Positions 3,013 through 50,904 of a stretch of 64,000 nt of DNA are shown here, in pieces. The notes beneath the pieces were generated by a model. The model was not told where the DNA came from. It worked only from the letters and a program-made list of their open reading frames with translations, and did not search any database. The position numbers and the translations under genes were made by a program. Position 1 is the stretch's first letter; every line of letters begins with the position of its first letter. The stretch is from NCBI GenBank assembly GCA_040751795.1, contig JBFMHR010000001.1, forward strand, positions 1 through 64,000, given 5' to 3'. The stretch comes from Thermoplasmatota archaeon (GTDB lineage: Archaea > Thermoplasmatota > Thermoplasmata > UBA10834).

Positions 3013-5667
3013 TTGGAAGCTGGAGGACCTCCTTTGATCTCCGTGCTCCTTGTCGACGACGAACCCGCCCTCCTCGAGCTGGCCAAGTTCTTCCTGGAGA
3101 GGAACGAAGACATCACCGCGGCCGCGGCCTCCAGCGCGAAGGAGGCGACGGAGATGATGCGCACGGAGCGGTACGACGCCGTCGTCTGCGACTACCAGAT
3201 GCCGGGGATGGACGGCCTCGAGTTCCTTAAGGCGCTGAGGGCGCAGAAGGACGACATACCCTTCGTGCTCTTCACGGGCAAGGGGAGGGAGGACGTCGCC
3301 ATCGAGGCGCTCAACTCCGGCGCGGACTTCTACCTCCAGAAGGGAGGGGACCCCAACTCCCAGTTCGCGGAGCTCGCCAACATGATCAGGGCGTCGGTCG
3401 CGGCGCTCAGGTCGGAGAGGGAGCTCGCCAGGAGCGAGGAGCGGTTCAGGCTCCTCGCCGAGAACTCCAAGGACCTCGTCTTCCGCTACGAGCTCCTCCC
3501 CGAGCCGAGGTTCGAGTACGTCTCGCCTTCCGCGACCCGCATCGTGGGCTACACCCCCGAGGAGCACTACGCGAATCCCCGGCTGGGGATGGACCTGGTC
3601 CACCCGGACGACAGGCACCACCTCCAGGCGCTCCTCGAGGGGACGCGCGACCCGGCGACGCCCCTGGTCGTCCGCTGGATGACCAAGGACGGGCGGCTCA
3701 TATGGACGGAGCAGAGGCTCGTGCCAATCAGGGACCCCGCCGGGAGGACCGTCGCCATCGAGGGGACGGCGATAGACGTCACGGAGAGGGTCAACGCGGA
3801 GGAGGAGCTGAGGCGGTCGGAGGCGGAGTACAGGAGGCTCGTCATGACGGTCCCCTCGCTCATCTGCAGGCTCGCGACCGACGGGAGGACCCTCTTCGTG
3901 AACGAGCACCTGAAGGAGGTGACCGGCTACGCCCCGGAGGAGCTGGTCGGCCGCAACTGGTGGGACGTGCTCTTCCCCGGCAACCTGAGGGGCCAGGTCG
4001 ACTCCCTGATGCAGGACCTGGGCAGCAGGGACGTGTGGGGGAGGGAGATGACCCTGCTCGACAAGGCGGGGTCGACCAAGACGCTCCTCTGGAGCTCATT
4101 CAACGAGCGGTCCGGGGACGGCAGGGAGCTGCAGGAGCTCAACTTCGCTGCCATTGACGTCACGGCGAGGAAGGCCGCTGAGAACGCGCTCAGGGAGAGC
4201 GGGGCCTTCAACAGGGCGGTCCTCGACTCGCTGGACGCGAACATCGCGGTGCTCGACGGCGTGGGCCGCATCGTGGCCGTCAACAAGAGCTGGCTCGTCT
4301 TCGCGGGGGTCAACGACGCGGACCTCTCGAAGGTGGGCGTGGGGTGCGACTACCTCGCCGTGTGCGAGGTGGCCGCCGCCGACGGAGACGAATCCGCGAG
4401 GAGGGTGGCGGACGCGGTCCGCGAGGTCCTGATGGGGATCAGGAGCACCTTCTCGATGGAGTACCCCTGCGACTCCCCCGAGAGGAAGAGGTGGTTCATG
4501 CTCGACGTGACCCCCCTCCCCAGGAGGCGCGGGGGCGCGGTGGTCTCCCACATGGACATCACCCCGAGGAAGACCATGGAGGAGGCGCTGAAGGCCAGCG
4601 AGGCGCACTACAGGTCCATCTTCGAGGCCACCGGCACGGCGATGGCCATAATCGCTGAGGACGACACCCTCGTCCTGGTCAACTCTGAGTTCGAGAAGCT
4701 CTCGGGGCGCTCCAAGGCGGAGCTGGAGGGGAAGGTGAGGTGGCGCTCGCTGCTGGACCCGAAGGACCTCGCGGCCGTCTTGGAATACGACCGCTCGAGG
4801 TTCGAGGACCCGGCGAGCGTGCCGAAGGCGTTCCAGCTCACTGCGAGGGACAGGTTCGGGGCCCAGAGGTCCGTCCTGGCCAACGCGGCCGTCGTCCCGG
4901 GCACCAGGCGGACCATCATATCCGTCCTGGACGAGACCGAGAGGAGGAGGTACGAGGACGCCGCCCACCAGGCGAGCAAGAAGCTGGACCTCCTGGCCAG
5001 GATCACGAGGCATGACATCCTGAACCAGCTGGCGGTCCTCTTCGGCTACCTGGAGCTCGCGAGGGAGAGGTCCAAGGACGAGCAGATGCTCCCCCTCCTC
5101 GCCAAGGCCGCGGCCGCGAGCGAGTCGATAAGGAGGCACCTGGAGTTCGCACGCGACTACCAGAACATGGGGACCAAGCGACCACAGTGGGTCGACATCC
5201 AGGCCACGTGCAGGAGGGTCGCCTCGAACGTGGAGCTCAAGGGCGTCCGGCTGGTCGCCGAGCTCGGCGGCGTGGAGGTCTTCGCCGACCCCATGCTCGA
5301 GAAGGTGTTCTACAACCTCCTCGACAACACCATGAAGCACGGGAAGAGGGCCACCATCGCGTCCTTCGGGTACTCCGCCGGGGCCGACGGGATGAGGCTC
5401 GTGTACCAGGACGACGGGGTCGGCGTCCCCGGGGCGGACAAGGCATCCATCTTCGAGAGGAGCGAGGGGGACATCGAGGGCAGGAGGGGGTACGGCCTGT
5501 ACCTCGCGCGGGAGATACTCAGCATCACGGGGATCACCATCTCCGAGACGGGCAGGGAGGGGGAGGGGGCCAGGTTCGAGATGTTCGTCCCGAGGGGCAG
5601 GTACCGGACGAAGAGGGAGCCGGACAAACGCAGGGGCCGGGGCAAGGCGCGCCGGACGGCGCACTGA
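3013..5667 (+). CDS. Hybrid sensor histidine kinase (REC-PAS x4-HisKA-HATPase)
   Basis: N-terminal VLLVDDE...DYQMPGMDG receiver, several PAS/PAC repeats, RHDILNQL H-box, NLLDN/DDGVG/GYGLYL ATPase boxes. Confidence 0.92.
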   Translation: MEAGGPPLISVLLVDDEPALLELAKFFLERNEDITAAAASSAKEATEMMRTERYDAVVCDYQMPGMDGLEFLKALRAQKDDIPFVLFTGKGREDVAIEALNSGADFYLQKGGDPNSQFAELANMIRASVAALRSERELARSEERFRLLAENSKDLVFRYELLPEPRFEYVSPSATRIVGYTPEEHYANPRLGMDLVHPDDRHHLQALLEGTRDPATPLVVRWMTKDGRLIWTEQRLVPIRDPAGRTVAIEGTAIDVTERVNAEEELRRSEAEYRRLVMTVPSLICRLATDGRTLFVNEHLKEVTGYAPEELVGRNWWDVLFPGNLRGQVDSLMQDLGSRDVWGREMTLLDKAGSTKTLLWSSFNERSGDGRELQELNFAAIDVTARKAAENALRESGAFNRAVLDSLDANIAVLDGVGRIVAVNKSWLVFAGVNDADLSKVGVGCDYLAVCEVAAADGDESARRVADAVREVLMGIRSTFSMEYPCDSPERKRWFMLDVTPLPRRRGGAVVSHMDITPRKTMEEALKASEAHYRSIFEATGTAMAIIAEDDTLVLVNSEFEKLSGRSKAELEGKVRWRSLLDPKDLAAVLEYDRSRFEDPASVPKAFQLTARDRFGAQRSVLANAAVVPGTRRTIISVLDETERRRYEDAAHQASKKLDLLARITRHDILNQLAVLFGYLELARERSKDEQMLPLLAKAAAASESIRRHLEFARDYQNMGTKRPQWVDIQATCRRVASNVELKGVRLVAELGGVEVFADPMLEKVFYNLLDNTMKHGKRATIASFGYSAGADGMRLVYQDDGVGVPGADKASIFERSEGDIEGRRGYGLYLAREILSITGITISETGREGEGARFEMFVPRGRYRTKREPDKRRGRGKARRTAH

Positions 5668-9833: not shown

Positions 9834-11123
9834 GTGTCTCAGATGGAGAGGAGTTCGAGGATAGAGGGTTTCTACAAGCTCAGCCCGGAGGAGCGCCTCA
9901 GGGTCGTCAAGGAGTTCGCGGGCCTCACCGACGACGAGGCTCTCGCCCTGTCGGGCCATGCCGGGCTGACCCCAGGCGGTGCCGACAAGATGGTGGAGAA
10001 CGCAGTGGGCACATTCGCCATGCCCATCGGGGTCGCGACCAACTTCCTCGTCAACGGCAGGGACTACCTCGTCCCCATGGTCATCGAGGAGCCCTCCGTC
10101 GTGGCGGCGGCCTCGAACGCGGCCAAGATGGCGAGGGACAGGGGCGGCTTCAGGGCCTCGAGCACCCCGCCGGTGATGATCGGGCAGGTCCAGGTGACCG
10201 GGGTCAAGGACCCGGAGGCGGCAGCGGCCCGCATCGAGGCGGCGAAGGCGCGCATCCTCAAGCTCGCGAACGAGCAGGACCCGATGCTCATCAGCCTCGG
10301 CGGCGGGGCCAGGGACCTGGAGGCCAGGGTCATAGGGACGGTGCACGGGCCGCAGGTCGTGGTCCACCTCAAGGTCGACGTCAGGGACGCGATGGGGGCC
10401 AACGCCGTGAACACGATGGCCGAGGCGACCGCGCCCCTCATCGAGGAGGTCTCCGGCGGCAGGGTGTACCTCAGGATACTCTCCAACCTCGCGGTCTTCA
10501 GGACCGCGAAGGCCGAGGCCACCTGGTCGAAGGAGGCGATAGGAGGCGAGGAGGTCGTCGACGGGGTCGTCGAGGCCTACGCCTTCGCGGAGGCGGACCC
10601 GTACAGGTGCGCCACCCACAACAAGGGGATAATGAACGGGATAGACGCGGTCATAATCGCGACCGGGAACGACTGGAGGGCGATAGAGGCGGGCGCGCAC
10701 GCATACGCGACCGTCTCCGGCGGCTACAAGCCCCTCACGAGGTTCTCCAAGACCCCGGAGGGTGACCTGAGGGGGAGCATTGAGGTCCCCATGGCCGTCG
10801 GCCTGGTCGGGGGGGCGACGAAGGTGCACCCGGGGGCAAAGGCGTGCGTGCGCCTCCTCGGGGTCAAGACCGCGAACGAGCTGGCGGAGGTCGTCGCCTC
10901 GGTAGGGCTCGCCCAGAACCTCGCGGCGCTCAGGGCCCTGGCCACGGTCGGCATACAGAAGGGGCACATGTCCCTCCACGCCAGGAACATGGTCGCGAGC
11001 GTGGGCTGCCCGCCAGAGCTGATGGAGGAGGCGGTGGAGACCATTGTGCGCGAGAGGAAGATACGGATGGACCGGGCCAAGGAGGTCGTCGAGGAGCTCA
11101 AGCGGTCCCGGGCTAAGCGGTGA
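9834..11123 (+). CDS. HMG-CoA reductase, class II
   Basis: ENAVG, EEPSVVAAAS, DAMGAN, THNKGIMNG, GNDWRA, GIQKGHM. Confidence 0.95.
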   Translation: MSQMERSSRIEGFYKLSPEERLRVVKEFAGLTDDEALALSGHAGLTPGGADKMVENAVGTFAMPIGVATNFLVNGRDYLVPMVIEEPSVVAAASNAAKMARDRGGFRASSTPPVMIGQVQVTGVKDPEAAAARIEAAKARILKLANEQDPMLISLGGGARDLEARVIGTVHGPQVVVHLKVDVRDAMGANAVNTMAEATAPLIEEVSGGRVYLRILSNLAVFRTAKAEATWSKEAIGGEEVVDGVVEAYAFAEADPYRCATHNKGIMNGIDAVIIATGNDWRAIEAGAHAYATVSGGYKPLTRFSKTPEGDLRGSIEVPMAVGLVGGATKVHPGAKACVRLLGVKTANELAEVVASVGLAQNLAALRALATVGIQKGHMSLHARNMVASVGCPPELMEEAVETIVRERKIRMDRAKEVVEELKRSRAKR

Positions 11124-35493: not shown

Positions 35494-35815
35494 GCCAGGA
35501 GAAGGCGGATGGCCGACGGTAGGCCCGTTCTCAGAACGGGCCGGCTGAGGAAAGTCCCCTCTCCAAGAGAAGGTGGGCCGCCAGAGCGGCAGGGCGAGAG
35601 TCCTGGCAAGGGCACAGAAACGGCACAGCCTCGGGATAACGTGATGATTCCCCTGGGGATGAAGTCTCCCGAGGACATGGTGAAACGGCGACACCCCACC
35701 GGAGCAAGCTCAAACGGCCGAACGATCTCTCATCGACGGCGGGTAGAGTGCAATAGTCGGATGCCATCACCGTCGCAAGACGGGAACAGAAAGGGGCTTA
35801 TGTCCTTCACCTGGC
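35494..35815 (+). ncRNA. rnpB: Archaeal RNase P RNA
   Basis: GAGGAAAGTCC (CR-I), ACAGAAA, GTGAAACGG, GGAGCAAG, AACAGAAAGGGGCTTAT (CR-V); P1 GCCAGG..GAAGG / CCTTC..CCTGGC. Confidence 0.95.
35790..35815 (+). repeat. Left att direct repeat AAAGGGGCTTATGTCCTTCACCTGGC
   Basis: Identical 26 bp at 47070-47095; forms the 3' end of rnpB. Confidence 0.93.
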
Positions 35816-35955
35816 TCTTATACCTTTATAAAGGGTATATGACAGAATGCACTTTCTGTCTCTCCCCGCATGGTCCTCCAGGGATTGCTCCGGCAATGGG
35901 AGGTCATACCCACCACAACAAAGTTTTACATGGCTTCTGAAGCATTTCCAAGTGG

Positions 35956-39033: not shown

Positions 39034-39783
39034 TCAGCCTCCTCCGGCAAATCTAACGCTAAATGCTTCACAGATCGCCTTCACGAATGAATGATAGTGC
39101 AACGGGCTCCCCAGCTGGGGGGCTGGTGGCTCACTCACCAGCTTAGCCGAATGTCCCTTCACATTGTCGTAGTCAACGACAATGACTCCGACTGCGTCGA
39201 TCTCATTAGGTTTGCTAGGCGATGGGCCAGTCTTCGAGGCTCTAGGCAAATCCTCAAACAGCTTCACTGTCTCTGTGACTAGTCGTTCAATGTTTGCATG
39301 CATTGTTGTCTCTCCAGCTCTAAGAGGCGACATGAAGCTTGCAGACATGTTCACGACAACGAGCCCACCAACAATCGTCCGTGGATTTGACATGTGGAGG
39401 ATACTTGAGAAGGAATTCAGGTCCCTCTGTCTATTCCTTCTCGCTTTTCCGTGTTCCGTCATGATTGTCTTCGCATCTACTGCCACCCACAACTCATCGG
39501 GAGGAGCACAGATTGACTCCCCCTCGCCGCCAGGCACCCTTTGCGCATCTCGGGAAGTGGGTCCGATGGCAAGGTCAATGTTCCAGCCTAATGGCACCCC
39601 CAACCCAGGCGGTTGGTTCTGGTTATAGCAGATTCTCCCCTTTGCAGCCATTTCTGCAAAAGCAGGGCATGAAGCCATCATATCCTCCAAGAGGAGCTCG
39701 CAGAGTCGGTCGCCATGCTTCGATGATCTTGGGTGATAACCGTTTGACTCCAGATACCGCACGAATTCTCTGTCCGCCTTCAA
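39034..39783 (-). CDS. Putative Type II restriction endonuclease (PD-(D/E)xK)
   Basis: IDLAIG...VAVDAK motif; directly downstream of a DNA methyltransferase. Confidence 0.68.
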   Translation of the reverse strand: MKADREFVRYLESNGYHPRSSKHGDRLCELLLEDMMASCPAFAEMAAKGRICYNQNQPPGLGVPLGWNIDLAIGPTSRDAQRVPGGEGESICAPPDELWVAVDAKTIMTEHGKARRNRQRDLNSFSSILHMSNPRTIVGGLVVVNMSASFMSPLRAGETTMHANIERLVTETVKLFEDLPRASKTGPSPSKPNEIDAVGVIVVDYDNVKGHSAKLVSEPPAPQLGSPLHYHSFVKAICEAFSVRFAGGG

Positions 39784-39847
39784 CTCCAGACCACTCTGCG
39801 GATGTAAGGCCTAGGTAGTATGTTAATTTTCGGCAGAGAAGGATGTC

Positions 39848-40912
39848 CTATTTCTTGGTGATGGATAGCCTGCGGTTCATCTGCAGGGTGCCTATTTCAT
39901 TCCTGATGCGCTTCTCGGCCAGTCGAAGATAGTCGCTGTCAATCTCGAAGCCTACGCTATTCCTGCCAGTCTTCATTGCCGCGAGATTGGTTGTCCCTGT
40001 CCCCGTGAACGGATCGAGGACGGTGTCTCCCGCGAAACTGAACATGCGTATGAGCCTCAGAGGTATCTCAAGAGGAAACGGAGCCGGGTGTTTTGCAGTG
40101 CTCTCCCCCGGAACATCCGCCCATATCTGCTGGAACCAAACTCTATGTTTGTCAGCAGGGACTATGCTCAGCAATCGAGTCTTGGTATCAGGCTTGCGAT
40201 ACGATCCCGGCTTCCTCTCCATAAGTATGAATTCAACATCATTCTTCACCACACCCCCGGGCTCGTAGGGCTTACCGAGGAAGCCTGCCCCATTCCCTTC
40301 AGCCTCGAAGGCTGCATTCGCAATCTTGTACCAGAATATCGGAGCTAGATTGTCAAAACCTAGCTTCCTGCAGTGGCCTTGAATGTCGGCATGCAGTGGG
40401 AAAACTTGGTGTCGCCCATGCTTCCTGCGGCTCAGGCAGACGTCGCCGACGACAATAATCAACCTCCCGCCTTCCACGAGGACTCTGTGGCATTCTGCCC
40501 ACACCTTGTCGAGTTCCTTCAAGAAGTCCTCGTAATCGGTAACATAGCCAAGTTGTCCCTCGGTTATGTTGTACTTCTTCAGAGTCCAGTATGGGGGGGA
40601 GGTTACTACTAGGTGTACAGACTCATCCTCTACGCCTTTCAGATTCCTAGCATCGCCTTGAATAAGCCTATGTTCGGTCGGCAGACTAGCTATCTCCTCT
40701 TCAACGGCGGACAGGAAGGCAGAATCCTTACTCGCCTTAGGTATGAACATATCTGCCTGCCTGGGAGTCATGCTAGATGGCAGATTGAAAGACTTGGACA
40801 GTTCGTCCACAGACATTTCGATGGACCAATTGCCAGAGCACGTACTTGAACTGTTCGCAGAGGTCTCCGGAAATGCTCCTTTGCCTAGTAATAGCCCGGA
40901 GTCATGCGCCAT
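39848..40912 (-). CDS. Site-specific DNA methyltransferase, beta class (SPPY, probably N4-C)
   Basis: VTSPPYW, HPAPFP, VLDPFTGTGTT. Confidence 0.93.
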   Translation of the reverse strand: MAHDSGLLLGKGAFPETSANSSSTCSGNWSIEMSVDELSKSFNLPSSMTPRQADMFIPKASKDSAFLSAVEEEIASLPTEHRLIQGDARNLKGVEDESVHLVVTSPPYWTLKKYNITEGQLGYVTDYEDFLKELDKVWAECHRVLVEGGRLIIVVGDVCLSRRKHGRHQVFPLHADIQGHCRKLGFDNLAPIFWYKIANAAFEAEGNGAGFLGKPYEPGGVVKNDVEFILMERKPGSYRKPDTKTRLLSIVPADKHRVWFQQIWADVPGESTAKHPAPFPLEIPLRLIRMFSFAGDTVLDPFTGTGTTNLAAMKTGRNSVGFEIDSDYLRLAEKRIRNEIGTLQMNRRLSITKK

Positions 40913-42039
40913 GACGTGCTACCCTCCTTCATAGAACGGTGTTCGACAAGGGAGACGAGCCTTTCGAGCTTCTCATCAGAAATCTCCCCATTAAGGTACT
41001 TCAGGAGGATCATATCTCTGATGCGGTCTGATCTCTCAGGCCCCTCATCTATCGACTCGGCACCGAATCCTGCGTCCTCCTCGGGCAGGGCTCTCTGAGA
41101 CACGCTTGCGGACTCACCACCAAATGCCCTGTCATACGCTTGTCTCCTGCTCTTTTCACTCAAATGCGTGTATCTCTGCACATCGTCCAGACTCTTATGC
41201 CTTGACTGAGCCTGAATGAAGGATGCAGACAGCCCGCTCTCGGCCATATGTGTGATCATGCTGTGCCTGAAGATGTGGGGATGGACGTTCTTCTCGATTC
41301 CTGCTCGAAATGCCGTCTTCTTCACCATCATCCAGAGATTCCTCCTTGTCATTGGCCTCCTGCCCTCTGTGAGGAATACATAGTCTTCGTACCCGCTCTC
41401 TGGCGCTGGCCTACCCGCTTTAAGGTATCTTGCTACGGCTTGGACGGCCTCATCTGAGAGATTGACGAAGGAGTAATCCTTCCCCTTTCCCGCATGTACT
41501 CTGAGGCGCTTCTTGTCGAGATCAAGATTGGCGACCCTCACGCCGATGGCTTCACTAGCCCTTAGCCCACCATAGTACATCAAGCAGATGAGGGCATAAT
41601 CTCTCAACGAGGTGTCTCTCTCGGCCTGGAACCCATTCTCCCCGATCTTCGACCTCTTCGCTTCGTCAAGCACCCGCCTGACTTCTTCCTCTGTCAGAGG
41701 AACCTTCTCCTTCTCAACCTGCTTCGGGAGTTTCATCCTAAGGTCATGGCGCTCGATAACCTGCGATGTATAGCAGTTTACGGCTGCAAGCATGCTACAC
41801 ATGGTATTCTCACAGTATTTCTCTGCCAGGTGAGCCTTCCATGCCTGCATGTCGGCCTTCTGAAGCTCTAGAACGGGCTTTCCGATGAATTCTAGGCACA
41901 ATCTCAGACTCCGAGTGTACGAGGTCGCAGTAGCCTCTGTACGCTTCTCTGCCCTCAGAAATGCCTCGAATCGTTCAACCTGCTCCTGAACCTGCTGCTC
42001 AGTGTTCACACACCCTAGAGACTGCTCTCTCGTACTCAA
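40885..42039 (-). CDS. Tyrosine recombinase/integrase
   Basis: GLRASE (R), GKGK (K), HPHIFRHS (HxxR), RHKSLDDVQRYTH (H, Y). Confidence 0.95.
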   Translation of the reverse strand: MSTREQSLGCVNTEQQVQEQVERFEAFLRAEKRTEATATSYTRSLRLCLEFIGKPVLELQKADMQAWKAHLAEKYCENTMCSMLAAVNCYTSQVIERHDLRMKLPKQVEKEKVPLTEEEVRRVLDEAKRSKIGENGFQAERDTSLRDYALICLMYYGGLRASEAIGVRVANLDLDKKRLRVHAGKGKDYSFVNLSDEAVQAVARYLKAGRPAPESGYEDYVFLTEGRRPMTRRNLWMMVKKTAFRAGIEKNVHPHIFRHSMITHMAESGLSASFIQAQSRHKSLDDVQRYTHLSEKSRRQAYDRAFGGESASVSQRALPEEDAGFGAESIDEGPERSDRIRDMILLKYLNGEISDEKLERLVSLVEHRSMKEGSTSWRMTPGYY

Positions 42040-42202: not shown

Positions 42203-42466
42203 TCAGGTGTCATCGCCCCCCTTCCCCTGGAACTTGCCCTCGATAGCCATTCGGACATGCCTTGCAGACAATCGGGCTTTACGCCTCTCCCCCAATTGAG
42301 CTCTAAGGAAGTTCTCCCTATCATGGATCGAAGACGCTCTGACAGCGATGGAGATTGCCTCATTCTCGAGGTGAGATTTGAGAGTTTCAACGGCCGCGCG
42401 CTCAATCTTCCGTTCTGGAGCCTTCTGTCCCAAGAGCATCCGGACGGACCGGAGGGAGATGGTCAT
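42203..42466 (-). CDS. Putative histone-fold protein
   Basis: ISLRSVRMLL / ERKIERAAVETLKSHLENEAISIAVRA / RKARLSARHVRMAI fit the alpha1-L1-alpha2-L2-alpha3 pattern. Confidence 0.62.
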   Translation of the reverse strand: MTISLRSVRMLLGQKAPERKIERAAVETLKSHLENEAISIAVRASSIHDRENFLRAQLGERRKARLSARHVRMAIEGKFQGKGGDDT

Positions 42467-42753
42467 GAGCCCTCCTGCTGTTCAGCATCCAGTTGCGACT
42501 CCCGATTCTCGATCTTTGGGAGGAACCTCTCAAACTCCTTCCCTTTGCGCCACCGCCACTGCGTCTGTTCGTTTATCAACCCTCGAACCCGGGAAAGCCT
42601 GTAGTATGAATCTGCGGTTCGCCGATCAATGCCCAACCCCGCATCAACAACCACCTCTTGCCAGTCATTTCGACCATAGTAACGACTGTCATCACAGCAG
42701 AGGTGGATTGTCTTCGCAAGGGCCTCCAGTTTCTTGGCTTCATTTTTGACCAT
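42463..42753 (-). CDS. Small winged-helix-like protein
   Basis: GIDRRTADSYYRLSRVRGLI helix-wing pattern; ATGA overlap with the next gene. Confidence 0.55.
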   Translation of the reverse strand: MVKNEAKKLEALAKTIHLCCDDSRYYGRNDWQEVVVDAGLGIDRRTADSYYRLSRVRGLINEQTQWRWRKGKEFERFLPKIENRESQLDAEQQEGS

Positions 42754-42776
42754 AGGCCACCCCCGCCGCATGCTTA

Positions 42777-42902
42777 TGTGTGTGTGAGTGTGCAACTAAG
42801 AGAGAAGGACCTCTCTCAAGACAATACATATTATACGACATCACAGATAGAAATCTGTTCAGAGAAGGGATTCTCTCTAGGGCGTGCACACACTCACACA
42901 CA
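42777..42902. repeat. Long imperfect palindrome with AT-rich core
   Basis: TGTGTGTGAGTGTGCA...AGAGAGAA / TTCTCTCT...TGCACACACTCACACACA. Confidence 0.7.
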
Positions 42903-43354: not shown

Positions 43355-43849
43355 CTGACTCCTTCCTGCCCTCAGCTCTACCCAGAGTCCTTCAGAGCCG
43401 CAGCAGGTTCAAGGAGGTTCAACATCGGAGGAGAGAATTCCGATAGACTCTAGGTTATCTGCCAAATCGACTACCGAGATTAAGGTCTTTTCGCTACCGG
43501 GGTTCTGCCGAGGATCTTCAAGACTCTGTATTGAAGAGTCTGTATTACGCGTGCATTCAAGCACGTATACGGAAATCTGCCGACAAATGCTCTTGCCGAC
43601 AATCGAAAAGGCCAGGATTATCGGCGGCGGACAGGGGATACCTTCAAAACCCTATGAAGAGAGAGAGAAGAGAGAGACATAGTCTCTCTCCACGAGCGTG
43701 CGAGGGCTGCCGAGGATTGACTTCCGACTTTCAGCTGGCAGTCGGAAGCAATCACGGTGATTCCGCCTGTCCATGGGCGAGACCTCATTCAAGCCAAATC
43801 ACGGGAAACAGAAAGAGAGATATGCGAAGACATCTGTACTCGGCAATGG

Positions 43850-44413
43850 ATGGAATCTGGGGGACCTGCGCCGAATCAGGACGATTGGCGCGAGTATCAG
43901 GCTCTTGAGGCGAGAATCCAGAATGATTCTAGGGTAGCATATGCGATTCTGGCAGCTTCATTGACTTCATCGTTAGCCTTAGCAGGTCTGCTACTGGTCT
44001 ATATCGATCCTGGGCAAGACCTAATCAGATTTCTGATCATCGCAGCCCTTGCACTCTTCATACTTAAATTCGGCACGGTGATTCAGAATCGATTCAACGA
44101 CACAGCAAGTATCAGAATCGCCAGGGCAGTGCAGCTGGAACGGAATCTGAGAATACACAGTTTCAGATCTTTTCCGCCCTGGTACGAATTTCCCGGAGGC
44201 GACTACTTCAAGATTCTTGGAGAATACGCCAGTAATTCCCGATCCGATGGCACTCCATCCTCTGATGCGTATTTCACATATTTGGGCCAAAGAGAATACG
44301 AACGTATAATCCGCGGATTGCGAATCCGTATTTACGTCTCATGGTTCGGATATGCAGTGATCTTAGCTCTGATTGCATCCGGAATTATTCTTGCTCTGGT
44401 GAACACTCAGTAG
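43850..44413 (+). CDS. Membrane protein (~3 TM), possible pore-type effector
   Basis: Two N-terminal TMs, then IARAVQLERNL, then a C-terminal TM. Confidence 0.62.
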   Translation: MESGGPAPNQDDWREYQALEARIQNDSRVAYAILAASLTSSLALAGLLLVYIDPGQDLIRFLIIAALALFILKFGTVIQNRFNDTASIRIARAVQLERNLRIHSFRSFPPWYEFPGGDYFKILGEYASNSRSDGTPSSDAYFTYLGQREYERIIRGLRIRIYVSWFGYAVILALIASGIILALVNTQ

Positions 44414-44526
44414 CAGTGACAAGAGAACCCGGCTGCGGAAACATGATAGGGATTAGTCGATGAAGGCTATAGGGGTAGAGGAAAGCCCTTAAGCCATCGC
44501 AAATGATTTGGATATTGGGAAAGGAA

Positions 44527-45051
44527 ATGGCAGATAAGTTCTTGGTTTTCGTCAGCCACTCCGCCAAAGATAAGCATCAACTCGAATTGATAAGAGGCGC
44601 AATCAGAGGGACTGGTGCGCGACCATATGTTGCCGAGGAGAATGTGACGCCAGGTGCGAAACTGTCAACAAAGATACGCAACAAGATTGAAGAATGTGAT
44701 GTATTCCTGCTAATCCTTACGGAGAACAGTGCAGCATCTGCCTATGTAAATCAAGAGATTGGATACGCGCTCGGCCTTGAGAAATTCGTGCTGCCTATAG
44801 TGATCGGGGATACTTGTCCCCAGAACCTCTGCTCCGATATTGAGTACATACGAATCGATCCGGAACGCCCTTCTTCATCTATTCGCACTGTCCGAGCAAT
44901 CATAAAAGCCAAGAAGAACGAAACTGAACTTGAGCAACTTGTCAAGATTGGCGCCCTCACCCTAGGGACCATAGCTTGGCTCAAGTACGGCCCTCAGATT
45001 AAGGAAACCGCATCTAGGTGGTGGCAGAATTTGAACAGACCATTACCATGA
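44527..45051 (+). CDS. TIR domain protein with hydrophobic C-terminal segment
   Basis: VFVSHSAKD, IEECDVFLLILT, SAYVNQEIGYA (catalytic E). Confidence 0.88.
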   Translation: MADKFLVFVSHSAKDKHQLELIRGAIRGTGARPYVAEENVTPGAKLSTKIRNKIEECDVFLLILTENSAASAYVNQEIGYALGLEKFVLPIVIGDTCPQNLCSDIEYIRIDPERPSSSIRTVRAIIKAKKNETELEQLVKIGALTLGTIAWLKYGPQIKETASRWWQNLNRPLP

Positions 45052-45116
45052 GAAGAAGCGATAGTGGCGAAGGGAAGCTCTTAAATCGTGCCTGGGGATT
45101 TCATAGGGTGATAGAC

Positions 45117-46292
45117 ATGAATGATTCCTCGACCCAAATGCTCATTCCTCTTCTCGCTGGAGGTGAAGATACCCTAGTCGAATTCAAATCTTTCCTTCCC
45201 AAGAACGAAGAAACTAAGCACAAAGTGGCCGAGGCCGCAACCGAGCTTGCCAACGCTGCAGCTCTTTGCGGGCATCCTAAGGCATTCCTGCTTCTCGGAG
45301 TCACAGATGATGGCAAGGTCGTTGGAGTGAAATGCCAAGAACGATACAAGAAGGAATTCAGAGAACTGATATCTGCCAAGTCTAATCCCCATGTGAGGGT
45401 TCTAGAGATTCATGAGATTGGAACCACGAGTCTATCGACCGACATCAAGTCTGAACCATGCGGCGAAGCAGTGTACGTCCTGGAAATTGCGCCTGCCTTG
45501 GATGGACCGATTCGATACTATAGGTCTAAAGATTCCAACGGAGTTCTATTGACAAGGGATGGCCCTCGAAAGCGGGACATGACCAACGAGGAATTGCGGC
45601 GGCTGTCCAGCGGGCCTGCCAGAACTCCGAAACTTTCACTCAGACTTCTGAACGATGAGGAACATGAAGTTGAATGCCTGGTCTTGAGACCGAAATTCTT
45701 GGTGAAGAAGAAGACCGAAGAGCCAAAGCCATACACTCCCACTCCTCAGCAGACAGCCTGGCTTGAGCAACTGAAGCGGCAGCCAAACATGCAACAGGTG
45801 ATGATACAGCAGGCATTGAGCACAAAAAGACTACTTGAGATGACAGAAACATGGAAGCCGTTTCTGACACAGGTTGAGAGAATCCCAGCTCCGAACACAT
45901 TTCCCACTCACTTCGCATTGTCGAATACCGGATCTGCACCAGCCGAGGATGTAAGGGTCACGATGAAGTTTCCTGAATGTTTTATGATTGAGGAGAAATC
46001 GGAGTATGAGCCACAGTCATATGGCATCCTTGCACATGTTCCATCAGTCACACCACCATTCAGCGGCGTATGGAAGAAAGACAGAGATGATCGGAATTGT
46101 GTGACTGCTGGCATTCGTGTCCAGAAACTAAGTAATGATGTCACAATTACTAGATTCGACCCAATTTTCGTGACTGTACCCAATGCCGAGAGAGAATACA
46201 GCATCGAAATCCGGATCACTGCCGACTATCAAGAACCTGTGCACCAGACTCTCACAATGATTATCAAGCCAATCATCGAAGAAGTCTCATAG
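45117..46292 (+). CDS. Schlafen/AlbA_2 domain protein with Ig-like C-terminus
   Basis: GEDTLVEFKS...LAN...LLLGVTDDGKVVG; C-terminal LSNTGSAPAEDVRVTMKFP. Confidence 0.8.
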   Translation: MNDSSTQMLIPLLAGGEDTLVEFKSFLPKNEETKHKVAEAATELANAAALCGHPKAFLLLGVTDDGKVVGVKCQERYKKEFRELISAKSNPHVRVLEIHEIGTTSLSTDIKSEPCGEAVYVLEIAPALDGPIRYYRSKDSNGVLLTRDGPRKRDMTNEELRRLSSGPARTPKLSLRLLNDEEHEVECLVLRPKFLVKKKTEEPKPYTPTPQQTAWLEQLKRQPNMQQVMIQQALSTKRLLEMTETWKPFLTQVERIPAPNTFPTHFALSNTGSAPAEDVRVTMKFPECFMIEEKSEYEPQSYGILAHVPSVTPPFSGVWKKDRDDRNCVTAGIRVQKLSNDVTITRFDPIFVTVPNAEREYSIEIRITADYQEPVHQTLTMIIKPIIEEVS

Positions 46293-46992: not shown

Positions 46993-47069
46993 CGCTGATT
47001 TGCATCATTGAACGCAGAATATCAGCGTCTGCATGTATGTGCTCGATATGATCCAGACTGCAGGGTTTC

Positions 47070-47095
47070 AAAGGGGCTTATGTCCTTCACCTGGC
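47070..47095 (+). repeat. Right att direct repeat (copy of the rnpB 3' end)
   Basis: AAAGGGGCTTATGTCCTTCACCTGGC identical to 35790-35815. Confidence 0.93.
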
Positions 47096-47739: not shown

Positions 47740-50700
47740 ATGGGTCGGATGACTGAGCTGGCTGCGCCACGGGAAGTCAGGGGCTCTGAGGCGATCATGG
47801 TAGCCCGCAATTACGACCGGAGGACCAGGGAATCACTCTCGCGGGCATCGACACTGCGCCGGATGCCGCCGCCCCGACTCGCTGCGGCCGTCGCCGCGGC
47901 CTTTGTATCCGTTGCCCTCGCGACCATGGGCCTCTTGGCCTGCGTTGTCCCTTCGAGCCCGGATGCCCCCGCTGGAATAGCGGCCATATCGAACGAGACG
48001 CTGGACGGCGAGAACGATGCGGGGCAGTTCACATCCATTGCCATCGGCGATGATGATGACGTGCACATCAGCTACATCTATGAGACCACGGCCGATCTCA
48101 GATACGCGACCAACGACGGAGGTGCGTGGAGCACTGAGACGGTCGATTCGGTCACCGACGCTTCCGGCTACACTTCGATGGCGATCGACTCTGAAGGCAA
48201 GGTCCACATCGCCTACTTCGACTTCACCAACATGCTGTTGATGTACGCAACGGACACGGGGGGCTCCTGGACAACCGACATGGTCGACGGCAGCGGCGAC
48301 GTCTCCGGATTCATCTCCCTAGCTGTCGACCTCAACGACAAGGTGCACATCAGCTACTACGACTCCGCCGATGACGACCTCATGTACGCCACGAACGCAG
48401 GCGGCTCCTGGGACATCAGTGCGATTGACAGCGGCGACAACGTCGGAGGCCACAGCTCGATAACCGTCGACTCCCATGGCGGCATACACATAAGCTACTG
48501 TGACTACACGGACACCGCCCTCAAGTATGCCACCAATGCGACCGGGTCGTGGACCACAAGCACGATTGACAGCGAAGGGACCGTCGGGTACTTCACATCC
48601 ATCGCTGTCGATTCGTCCGATCACGTCCACATAAGCTACCATGACGACACGAACGGTGCCGTCAAGTATGCCACGAACTCGGGGGGTTCATGGGCATGCG
48701 AGGCGGTCGACGGCGAATCGGGGATTGGCGACATCACATCCATCTCGATCGACGCTGAAGACCATGTGCACATCAGCTACTGCGACCGGATCGACGTGGA
48801 CCTCATGTACGCCACCAACGCATACGGCACCTGGTCCATTCAGACGGTCGACAGCACAGGTGATGTCGGAAGCTACTCATCCATAGCGGTCAACTCCACG
48901 GGCGTGGCCCACATCAGCTATTACGATTCGACGAACCACGACCTCAAGTACGCCACGGTCGCCCCATGCGTCATCCATGGCTGGGTGAACGACTCGGAGA
49001 CGATGCAGGGGATCGAGGGCGCCCAGGTCATGGCGTTCCTGACAGACTTCGAGTTCTCTCCATATCTCGACCCCATAATGGCGCAGACCACGGCAAACGA
49101 GACCGGATACTACGAACTGACCCTGCCCGGCGGCGCCACTGCGCTCATGTGCGGAGCCTCCGGACACTATAGTTACACCGTTGAGTTCAACACGACGGAG
49201 CTGACCGAATACCGGCTCGACATCATTCTGGACCCCGAGCCCACTGTGCCGACCGCGGACATGAGCCTGGACCCGGTCTCTGACGTGTCGTCCCACAACC
49301 CGCTCACGGTCAGTGTGGAGTGCGAGGACTTCAACATCTATATGGTCTTCATCTACATCGGCAGGATCCAAGAGCTGTCTGGTGACTACGTCGACTTCCA
49401 TCCCGTCGCTGGCGCTGCGGCGGTGCCCATGTGGGATACTGGCACGGACGACTTCCTCTATACCTACGAGAACGACGTCTTCGAGGGGACATACACGTGG
49501 ACGGCGAGCGCGGAGGCAGGCTATCTGACGAACGACACCGCATCGGAGTATATCGACATATGGTCGCACAGGTCCATCGATGGCGTCGAATCCTACGGTA
49601 TCGCGGGATACTACTCGAACGAGACGCTCGAGGGGGAGGTCGGCAGGGCATGGTTCGACCTCCTGACGGGGGAGTACCTCGGCTTCGAGTTCGGGGAGTC
49701 ACTGCTCCACGAGCCCTCCACCCTGCCACCCGCCCCCGCCGACGACCACACGGGCATGCTCACCCCGTTCTCATTGACCTACAGGATAGCCACGGACTGG
49801 ATGGGGACGGGAAACCCCCCGCCGGCGGACTTCCTCAGCTACGAAGAACAGCTCTTCGAGGAGAGACCCACCATGGGGCTCACGCTCCGGATGACCTACA
49901 TCGCCCCGAGCGGGGACTACGTCGCGCTCATGATAGTCATGGACGAGGCCGCCAACTACAACGGCTCCGTGGAGCTCTTCTCCGTCGACACGGATGCGCC
50001 CTCGGCGGACTGCGGGTCCGACCGGACGGTCTCATGCGGGGACGAGGTCACCCTGGACGGGAGCGCGTCATCCGATAATGTCGGCATAGCGTCCTATCAG
50101 TGGGACCTGGTCGATGGCGAGGCCGTGACGCTGACCGGCGCCGAGGCTGCGCACACCTTCGAGCTTCCGGGGACGTATGCGGTCACGCTCACCGTCTACG
50201 ACGGTGCGGGCAACAGCGGCACCGACACGATGACCGTGACCGTCGTTGACGATGAGGCCCCGGTCGCCGACGCGGGCGAGGCCCCGACGGACGTGGAGGC
50301 GGGCGAGACCGTCACATTCAACGCCTCGGGCTCCTCCGACAATGTCGGGATAGTCAACTTCACATGGGAGCTCACGGACGCCGCGGACGTCGTCCTGTAC
50401 GGGGAATCGGCGGACTACGCGTTCAGCGACGCCGGGGAGTTCCTCGTGACCCTCACGGTCAGGGACGCGGCGGGGAACAGCGACACCGACACGCTCACCG
50501 TCTCGGTGAGCGAGGCGCCTGTCAACGACCCGCCGGTGGCAGATGCCGGGGACGACGAGACCATCGGCCCCGGCTCCGTGTACACGTTCGACGGGACAGG
50601 CTCTTCGGCCGATGTCGTGAACCACACCTGGACATTCGCCTACGATGGGGAGGAGAGGGAGCTCTACGGGGAGACGCCGTCATGGACGTTCGACATCGCC

Positions 50701-50904
50701 GGAGAGTACACGGTGACGCTCACCGTGACGGACGACCTCGGGGCCACCGATGCCGACACCGTCCTGATCACGGTCGAGGAGGAAGGGTCCCAACTGGCCC
50801 TGCTCGTCGCTGCGGGGGCGGTCGCGGCCGTGGCGGCCGTCGGGGCGGCCCTCCTGCTCCTCAGGAAGCGCAAGGGTTCGGGCGGACCTCCGCCCCAGGG
50901 TTGA
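47740..50904 (+). CDS. Large acidic surface protein: 7-repeat beta-propeller, 3 PKD domains, C-terminal TM anchor
   Basis: Seven SIAxDxxxxVHISY repeats; APSADCG/APVADAG/PPVADAG PKD starts; TM followed by RKRK; start uncertain. Confidence 0.85.
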   Translation: MGRMTELAAPREVRGSEAIMVARNYDRRTRESLSRASTLRRMPPPRLAAAVAAAFVSVALATMGLLACVVPSSPDAPAGIAAISNETLDGENDAGQFTSIAIGDDDDVHISYIYETTADLRYATNDGGAWSTETVDSVTDASGYTSMAIDSEGKVHIAYFDFTNMLLMYATDTGGSWTTDMVDGSGDVSGFISLAVDLNDKVHISYYDSADDDLMYATNAGGSWDISAIDSGDNVGGHSSITVDSHGGIHISYCDYTDTALKYATNATGSWTTSTIDSEGTVGYFTSIAVDSSDHVHISYHDDTNGAVKYATNSGGSWACEAVDGESGIGDITSISIDAEDHVHISYCDRIDVDLMYATNAYGTWSIQTVDSTGDVGSYSSIAVNSTGVAHISYYDSTNHDLKYATVAPCVIHGWVNDSETMQGIEGAQVMAFLTDFEFSPYLDPIMAQTTANETGYYELTLPGGATALMCGASGHYSYTVEFNTTELTEYRLDIILDPEPTVPTADMSLDPVSDVSSHNPLTVSVECEDFNIYMVFIYIGRIQELSGDYVDFHPVAGAAAVPMWDTGTDDFLYTYENDVFEGTYTWTASAEAGYLTNDTASEYIDIWSHRSIDGVESYGIAGYYSNETLEGEVGRAWFDLLTGEYLGFEFGESLLHEPSTLPPAPADDHTGMLTPFSLTYRIATDWMGTGNPPPADFLSYEEQLFEERPTMGLTLRMTYIAPSGDYVALMIVMDEAANYNGSVELFSVDTDAPSADCGSDRTVSCGDEVTLDGSASSDNVGIASYQWDLVDGEAVTLTGAEAAHTFELPGTYAVTLTVYDGAGNSGTDTMTVTVVDDEAPVADAGEAPTDVEAGETVTFNASGSSDNVGIVNFTWELTDAADVVLYGESADYAFSDAGEFLVTLTVRDAAGNSDTDTLTVSVSEAPVNDPPVADAGDDETIGPGSVYTFDGTGSSADVVNHTWTFAYDGEERELYGETPSWTFDIAGEYTVTLTVTDDLGATDADTVLITVEEEGSQLALLVAAGAVAAVAAVGAALLLLRKRKGSGGPPPQG

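Follow-up and report, generated by a model that had tools for sequence, protein, structure and literature searches.

The window analyzed here is a stretch of 64,000 nucleotides (nt) from a Thermoplasmatota archaeon (GenBank assembly GCA_040751795.1, contig JBFMHR010000001.1, positions 1 to 64,000 of the forward strand), carrying an 11.28-kb mobile element that has integrated into the archaeal RNase P RNA gene at its 3′ end. In the core of this element, on the reverse strand, lies a gene encoding a small basic protein of 87 amino acids (aa) that, going by profile comparisons, an AlphaFold2 model and a predicted dimer, is a divergent histone-fold protein and non-canonical as an archaeal histone. 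The main new result concerns synteny, namely the strict pairing of this gene with that of an XerA-like tyrosine integrase. With the conserved gene pairing as context, we propose, at a probability of roughly 0.55, that the 87-aa protein is an architectural or directionality cofactor of the adjacent integrase.

The initial annotation had described the open reading frame (ORF) as basic, coupled to its upstream neighbor by an ATGA overlap and situated just upstream of an integrase gene, all of which was confirmed. The ORF is intact and its product, at 87 aa, has an isoelectric point (pI) of 10.83 (18 Lys and Arg against 11 Asp and Glu), its start codon (ATG) shares bases with the stop of the ORF upstream, and a 163-bp spacer separates the end of the gene from the integrase gene (coordinates in Table 1). 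Homologs were recovered by a word-indexed search (11 candidates, of which 7 proteins at E ≤ 0.01) and by an exhaustive HMMER scan of 1.84 billion representatives (14 at E ≤ 0.001), the query protein being counted in both; they measure 77–104 aa and range down to 34% identity. The ratio of nonsynonymous to synonymous substitution rates (dN/dS) was 0.05 between the window protein and its closest relative, at locus L003, with dS saturated at 2.09, and 0.12 for the pair L004/L005. Judged by these sequence comparisons, the ORF is a real gene under purifying selection and did not arise by chance. One might suspect a chance ORF, or a functionless decayed gene, given that the window protein alone has no Pfam histone match, yet such an origin is scarcely credible for a protein with conserved-length homologs down to 34% identity, both of the above dN/dS values, a confident structural model and conserved synteny.

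Searches in phage and defense collections returned little. The 87-aa protein had no match in PHROGs, where no family is common to its relatives either, and none in PADLOC; viral contigs scanned with the family alignment held no relative, and among 50,697 phage records, tblastn with the protein turned up chance-level matches only (E 7–8). In the ESM Atlas, the cluster containing the protein has 99 members, 29% of them with PF00808, and four of the eight members of known phylum are labelled as viruses (Uroviricota), which contrasts with the empty viral-contig and phage scans.

Taken on its own, the window protein had no PF00808 match in Pfam at E ≤ 1 (gathering cut-off 21.4 bits) and no match in the Protein Data Bank (PDB) by single-sequence phmmer, and against the NCBIfam model NF043032 (archaea_histone) it scored 15.4 bits (E 0.018, residues 15–47), which does not reach the 50-bit cut-off. 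With a family profile of 20 members (A2), 192 distinct PDB sequences were found at E ≤ 10, the best 60 of the 192 being all histones; the best whole-sequence E was 8.8e-6, for a construct of tandem H2B with two matches, followed by E 4.4e-4 for the best single H2B chain and E 0.019 for archaeal HPhA. PF00808 was detected at E ≤ 1 in 11 of the 20 family members (best E 1.2e-5), and one distant member, L029, passes the Pfam cut-off for this family at 24.4 bits. For direct comparison, we aligned the family with hhalign to 16 canonical histones (PF00808) encoded in genomes of the host phylum and obtained a probability of 97.0% (E 8.5e-11) over 71 columns, which is the whole fold; a broader 22-sequence family alignment gave 96.2%, and the single chromosomal histone of the host, when used alone, just 5.9%. 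The by-eye alignment to archaeal HMf-type histones made in the initial annotation thus holds in profile–profile alignment.

The AlphaFold2 model computed with A2 has a predicted local distance difference test (pLDDT) score of 88.9 and three helices, α1 (residues 5–15), α2 (23–57) and α3 (68–76). The top Foldseek matches were all histone-fold proteins, at E-values of 0.029–0.14, all of them above 0.001, which counts against the assignment. Re-scored with VIA-align, the matches ranked HMfA, HMfB, Asgard HHoB and HPhA at the top (Z 8.2–8.4, root-mean-square deviation 1.2–1.8 Å, 65–67 residues; 1.2 Å over 65 residues for HMfA and 1.7 Å over 67 for HMfB, both at Z 8.4), and the aligned region covers nearly all of each archaeal histone target; a Z near 8 in VIA-align may also reflect the common arrangement of helical proteins, and we therefore take the sequence profiles as independent support for the fold. 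Among the ESM Atlas clusters with a Pfam family, the ten best all carry a histone-fold family (10/10).

Prediction of a two-copy complex gave a score of 0.79, compared to 0.02 for the best of three controls; the calibration mark was reached by 20/30 proteins solved as one-chain pairs and 1/23 solved as single chains, with the caveat that histone dimers are themselves among solved structures, so that a pass may mirror likeness to them. Contact agreement among runs was at least 84% and partner pLDDT at least 82. The contacts are those of the classical handshake, with α2 crossing α2 at 33:33 and 36:36, L1 residues 19–22 pairing with L2 residues 64–68 of the partner, and α3 packing on the partner α2, and the prediction supports a head-to-tail handshake homodimer. 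The central claim of the initial annotation, a histone fold in the core of the mobile element, is borne out in that histone-family profiles match and both the fold and the handshake dimer are predicted. Residues 49–63 are absent from the confident dimer interface and, because of this, are free in the model for another partner.

This last segment includes a departure from canonical histones, an insertion of 10 residues by hhalign (residues 53–62) at the junction of the α2 C-terminal end and L2. An insertion here had been foreseen, at a length of about 12 aa that proved too great. As a result of it, α2 is 35 residues long and L2 about 10. The insertion is the most conserved stretch of the family: E51 and N52 are invariant (20/20) and R55, G59 and R61 are at least 90% conserved, and N52 and G59 stay at or above 90% after adding distant members. 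Conserved Arg and Lys residues flank L2 (R55, R61, K63), the C-terminal tail, modelled as disordered, has a recurrent GG[DE] motif, and the protein stops 11 residues after α3, with no docking domain. In the 16 canonical histones of the phylum, the Thr of L2/α3 is invariant and the Arg and Asp are at least 90% conserved; it is with this Asp that H70 aligns, as anticipated by the earlier call of a His in place of the salt-bridge Asp.

Set beside the archaeal histones HMfA/HMfB, HPhA and HHoB, the 87-aa protein shares the three-helix fold over the full length, the predicted handshake homodimer and a conserved Glu in the middle of α2. It differs from HMf-type histones in the α2/L2 insertion and the absence of the R-T-D clamp, the canonical fold being ~65–70 residues without insertion and permitting a four-helix-bundle tetramer. 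Among eukaryotic histones, H2B accounted for the best solved-structure sequence matches, which lie over α1–α2. The likeness to H2A pointed out in the initial annotation exists as a local alignment of residues 60–79 to the L2–α3 stretch but proved weak (i-Evalues 130–250); H2A also has Arg-His here where archaeal histones have Glu-Asp, and the resemblance may be convergent. Unlike H2A and H2B, the 87-aa protein is without N- and C-terminal tails, docking domain and αC helix, and it is predicted to form a homodimer, not a heterodimer. The consulted sections of Schwab et al. 2024 (PMC11390915) describe α3-truncated prokaryotic histones with an α3 of 3–4 residues and an α2 shorter by 4–5 residues, and the protein, with an α3 of nine residues and an α2 of 35, falls outside those families. 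The α3-truncated, face-to-face, phage and bridging histones treated in those sections (PMC11390915) are likewise divergent prokaryotic or phage histone folds with altered quaternary structure.

The pairing with the integrase was found wherever it could be judged. A XerA-like tyrosine integrase gene lies downstream on the same strand in all related loci whose downstream sequence is long enough (19/19). In the close group, an integrase matching PF00589 comes directly next, on the same strand, in L004, L005, L007, L008, L010 and L012; the L003 contig breaks inside the integrase gene, with just the N-terminal SAM-like domain visible, L006 is the same DNA as L007, and L009 and L011 end too soon to judge. 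Metagenome and genome scans made with a narrower family alignment (A1) reach close relatives only. Among 401 genomes of the phylum searched with a profile, nine, the host included, have the histone-fold family, and a PF00589 integrase stands immediately downstream in 10/10 loci from the eight other genomes. L084 has the same order, with an integrase that reaches 153 bits in the XerA model. The histone and integrase genes abut or overlap by 4–14 nt in many of the distant loci, the pair is kept in an element of just 5.56 kb (L005), and the pairing holds across relatives down to about 20–25% identity. Canonical histone genes behave differently: in a control, an integrase occurred within a roughly 3-kb locus at 2/26 canonical-histone loci versus 18/18 loci of the element-borne family, and both canonical exceptions are themselves arranged as histone, then integrase.

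A family of elements defined by ribbon-helix-helix (RHH), winged helix-turn-helix (wHTH), histone and integrase genes had been suggested, and of these the histone and integrase genes form the conserved module, while the other two are not conserved parts. The supposed wHTH gene, the upstream ORF, matches no HTH family (best Pfam match DUF1492, E 0.065; AlphaFold2 pLDDT 68.7, a poor model), and the RHH assignment of the next ORF is weak, below the family cut-off. The RHH gene and a homolog of the upstream ORF recur in L003 only; other relatives carry large unassigned proteins or various HTH genes in their place. L003 itself (JAEOUG010000131.1; 79% identity) is a 4.9-kb contig labelled Candidatus Thorarchaeota. 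A flanking gene in L003 has a 66–71% DNA match in the host genome, which gave no actin match and no ESCRT-III match above cut-off, and a binning error may explain the label, or else the element may move between phyla. Two other arrangements were noted within the phylum. At L027/L040 (G187, contig C56), a family member and its integrase are directly preceded by a canonical histone of 71 aa (PF00808, 52 bits), and at L055 (G032, contig C179), a same-strand integrase follows a histone of canonical length that has no insertion; both cases may represent intermediate stages by which a histone came to be recruited to the integrase.

The window integrase scored 163.6 bits against NF040815 (recomb_XerA_Arch), below the equivalog cut-off of 220, and the model covers residues 22–302. 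The catalytic Tyr, Y290, is invariant in the 13 integrases aligned. These 13 paired integrases share a C-terminal extension past this residue (about residues 300–384), laid out as a variable acidic and Pro-rich linker, a conserved helix with an invariant I353, and an invariant Y383 located one or two residues from the C-terminus. This extension, along with the canonical DNA-contact residues that are not conserved, the non-basic character of the most conserved residues (E51, N52 and G59, which are outside the dimer interface), and the conserved GG[DE] in the disordered tail, would suit a protein-only adaptor or chaperone, in which the dimer is a scaffold that stabilizes the integrase without touching DNA, as has been proposed for Orf2 of SNJ2. 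With a pI of 10.8 and conserved R55, R61 and K63 flanking L2, the protein is strongly basic, which argues against this, and we consider it improbable.

Bacterial recombinases rely on IHF, Xis and ArgR/PepA as assembly or direction factors; Xis is a winged helix and IHF has the HU fold. The 87-aa protein is comparable to lambda Xis, IHF and other recombination directionality or architectural factors in proposed function only: it is small and basic with a gene beside the integrase, and att-arm bending is proposed for it; the fold is unrelated. The IHF/Xis-like role already suggested for the protein draws strong contextual support from the invariant histone–integrase adjacency, and stands as a proposal. 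Building on the computed fold homology, fold, predicted dimer, element borders and target, and gene pairing, we infer DNA binding, DNA bending, integrase contact and an effect on recombination as follows. The basic histone-fold dimer would bind and bend element DNA beside the 26-bp core of the attachment site (att), and the bent DNA would aid assembly of the complex that recombines the element with the RNase P RNA 3′ end, or would bias its direction. The insertion (E51, N52, R55, G59, R61) would be the likeliest surface for contacting the integrase, perhaps through the C-terminal extension of the latter, or for additional DNA contacts, because it is outside the predicted dimer interface and extends α2 past the point of the tetramer interface. 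Since the α2 extension sits at the canonical tetramer-contact position, the insertion probably blocks nucleosome-like polymerization.

This presumed block bears on another possible use of the protein, as element-borne chromatin that coats, compacts or silences the excised circle or the integrated island. Canonical PF00808 histones occur in just 16 of 201 sampled genomes of the phylum, with none above cut-off in the host genome (92.8% complete), and an element could on that count supply its own; mobile elements and viruses that encode histones are known, phages among them (consulted sections of PMC11390915), and the Marseillevirus nucleosome is among the structural matches. The host chromosome, however, encodes a histone-like protein with an RKT...ED motif (29.7 bits against NF043032), and the α2 extension at the tetramer interface and the lost R-T-D motif argue against nucleosome-like wrapping. 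Moreover, chromatin leaves the strict pairing with one integrase family and the retention in a 5.6-kb element unexplained. We hold such a function to be rather improbable, and the packaging and silencing roles raised in the initial annotation gained no specific support. The host histone-like gene (G000 contig C27; L013 1351–1824, reverse strand) encodes a C-terminal extension of about 50 aa and scores 19.1 bits against PF00808, below cut-off.

The nearest precedent is the SNJ2 operon, in which, according to the consulted part of its report (PMC5861418), Orf3 (a MarR-like wHTH protein), Orf2 (a 111-aa 'coiled coil' protein) and Int are encoded, the two small proteins promoting integration. By that description, the order is the same as here (a small DNA-binding-like gene, a small helical protein, an integrase), with overlapping genes. 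The target of SNJ2 is a tRNA-Met gene, compared to the RNase P RNA gene for the window element. The Geoglobus pleomorphic virus 1 integrase shares 27.5% identity with that of the window, and no small histone-like gene precedes it; a Rep gene is located there instead.

Several points weigh against a histone-fold cofactor of the integrase. The canonical R-x-T...D DNA-contact motif is not kept, with K63, R65 and H70 at the R, T and D positions, and the basic residue of L1 varies within the family. The histone and integrase genes of the window, 163 bp apart, may or may not be co-transcribed. Loci are partly non-independent (L006 and L007 cover identical DNA, and a single genome contributes three loci), and the integrases of L022, L023 and L030 are 71–73% identical. 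According to the consulted sections of a review of archaeal tyrosine recombinases (PMC8371274), those archaeal integrases that have been characterized work without any essential helper or directionality factor, and no directionality factor is established in archaea. Finally, adjacency to the integrase is also to be expected of a regulator of the integrase gene.

A regulator of this kind would see the histone-fold dimer act as a transcription factor of the integrase or lysogeny module, repressing or activating the integrase gene and the cargo operon from the promoter region, in the manner of NC2 and NF-Y-type factors. The gene does lie between small DNA-binding-like genes (the weak RHH) and the integrase, the 163-bp spacer has room for a separate regulated promoter, NF-Y, NC2 and TAFs are among the structural matches, and some recombination directionality factors double as regulators (PMC5861418, consulted part). 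In the distant loci, by contrast, the genes overlap or abut and leave no room for a promoter, an arrangement that stoichiometric co-expression fits better, and the nearby HTH and RHH genes vary by locus, so that regulation is seemingly supplied by other genes. We regard a regulatory function as unlikely, although it is the best placed of the alternatives to a cofactor of the integrase.

A bolder form of the cofactor proposal, to which we would give somewhat less than even odds, is that the histone-fold dimer is an obligate partner of this XerA-derived integrase clade, the first archaeal directionality or architectural factor and the first histone fold in site-specific recombination, with the finger formed by E51, N52 ... 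G59 docking on the C-terminal extension of the integrase. If true, mobile elements would be using the histone fold to shape a single recombination site, and not to package genomes. Prokaryotic histone-fold proteins have so far been discussed mainly as chromatin proteins, and strict pairing with a single clade of integrases would provide archaeal site-specific recombination with a cofactor of its own, and the histone fold with a new job. The terms integrase, recombinase and mobile are absent from the main text of Schwab et al. 2024 (PMC11390915), as are integrase and recombinase from the main texts of a 2026 survey of archaeal histone diversity (PMC13260811) and of a paper on viral histone mining (PMC13681535), each of which may list the family in its supplement. 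The consulted sections of the archaeal tyrosine recombinase review never mention histones (PMC8371274), and the literature searched, as far as it was accessible, contained no paper linking a histone fold to an integrase, nor one joining 'recombination directionality factor' with 'histone fold'. The cofactor idea lends itself to direct testing, which would take two small recombinant proteins and the defined att site of 26 bp.

The analysis also defines a family of small elements, 5.6–11.3 kb in size, whose landing site is the RNase P RNA gene. In the window, GC content drops from about 0.65 to 0.48–0.54 between roughly 36 and 48 kb, and an exact direct repeat of 26 bp, or of 30 bp if one mismatch is allowed, bounds this region, with two matches in the window versus zero expected. 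The last 23 nt of the RNase P RNA gene are inside the left repeat, and it is from the direct repeats, with the left copy forming the 3′ end of that gene, that the size and insertion site of the element follow. Its leftward gene string comprises the weak RHH-like ORF, the upstream ORF, the histone-fold gene, the integrase gene and a Type II methyltransferase gene, the last overlapping the 3′ end of the integrase gene by 28 nt. A TIR protein and a Schlafen/AlbA_2 protein make up the rightward set, and the element holds further ORFs without family assignment.

Table 1. Features of the RNase P RNA-targeting element and its boundaries in the window, in order of position.
Feature	Position	Strand	Basis or remark
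Archaeal RNase P RNA gene, integration target	35497..35812	+	RF00373 182.4 bits, E 3.5e-53
attL core, 26-bp repeat	35790..35815	+	direct repeat
Type II N4/N6 DNA methyltransferase, same-strand cargo	39848..40912	-	PF01555 2.1e-39; PADLOC MTase_II 9.3e-65
Tyrosine integrase, 384 aa, XerA-like	40885..42039	-	PF00589 3.9e-38
Histone-fold protein (predicted), 87 aa	42203..42466	-	profiles, AlphaFold2 model, predicted dimer, selection
Upstream ORF	42463..42795	-	stop overlaps histone start (ATGA); likely start = ATG at 42753
Weak ribbon-helix-helix-like ORF, 123 aa	42983..43354	-	RHH_1 E 0.027, 14.9 bits, below cut-off
TIR-domain protein	44503-45051	+	TIR_2 1.1e-17; ThsB-like 2.4e-12
Schlafen/AlbA_2 protein	45018-46292	+	SLFN_AlbA_2 1.6e-11
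attR core, second 26-bp copy; right end of 11.28-kb element	47070..47095	+	direct repeat

Related elements share this target. The 5.56-kb element of L005 has an identical att core (4347–4372 and 9908–9933) and the same RNase P RNA target, and L006/L007 carry a 7.36-kb element with two further att copies after it (L007 cores at 4440, 11799, 17877 and 19075). The RNase P RNA genes of the metagenome loci have a mean column identity of 90% to that of the window. The archaeal RNase P RNA gene has, at its 3′ end, a recurrent integration hot spot with an identical 26-bp core; our literature searches returned no paper on RNase P RNA genes as archaeal integration sites. L007 carries three att-bounded segments in tandem.

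In the host's own family, an extra copy of the att core was present in 11 of 24 other genomes, none of which (0/24) holds the histone-fold family. At L080, flanked by two att cores, only the C-terminal half of an integrase is left, and at L081 and L082, beside the RNase P RNA gene, no integrase ORF was seen by eye (no Pfam run). With the histone-fold gene missing from these att-bearing genomes and the integrase broken or absent, the histone and intact integrase appear to have been lost together in the att-linked stretches of the host family. In the loci of 19 relatives, the right flank of the window was not found beside an RNase P RNA gene and no attB was recovered. Two DNA metagenome runs hold 5–9% of the sequence words and yield contigs related to the region of the integrase, the histone and the upstream ORF; in these contigs we found no trustworthy excision or empty-site joint, the one joint of 5984 nt having a 37-nt side at 80% likeness. 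No RNA run is listed among those that hold the sequence.

Palindromes (CAGAAT ... TCTG) were noted at 35843–35858 and 47015–47031, that is, 27 nt inside attL and 39 nt before attR, with similar ones beside att in L005 and L007. Three matches to such palindromes occur in the window versus 0.51 expected, which is thin statistical support; the palindromes could be sites for an accessory protein, arm sites of the integrase, or a terminator of the RNase P RNA.

The cargo of the element resembles a defense island (39034–40912 and 43757–46292), in which the TIR gene overlaps the Schlafen/AlbA_2 gene and an unassigned ORF of 249 aa, possibly the cognate nuclease, comes after the methyltransferase gene. 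Also among the cargo is a 414-aa membrane protein with a weak 8xMP match. Just outside attR, at 47740–50904, lies a gene for an acidic, secreted or membrane-anchored protein of 1054 aa, which contains seven tandem repeats of 141 nt (47 aa) followed by more repeated modules.

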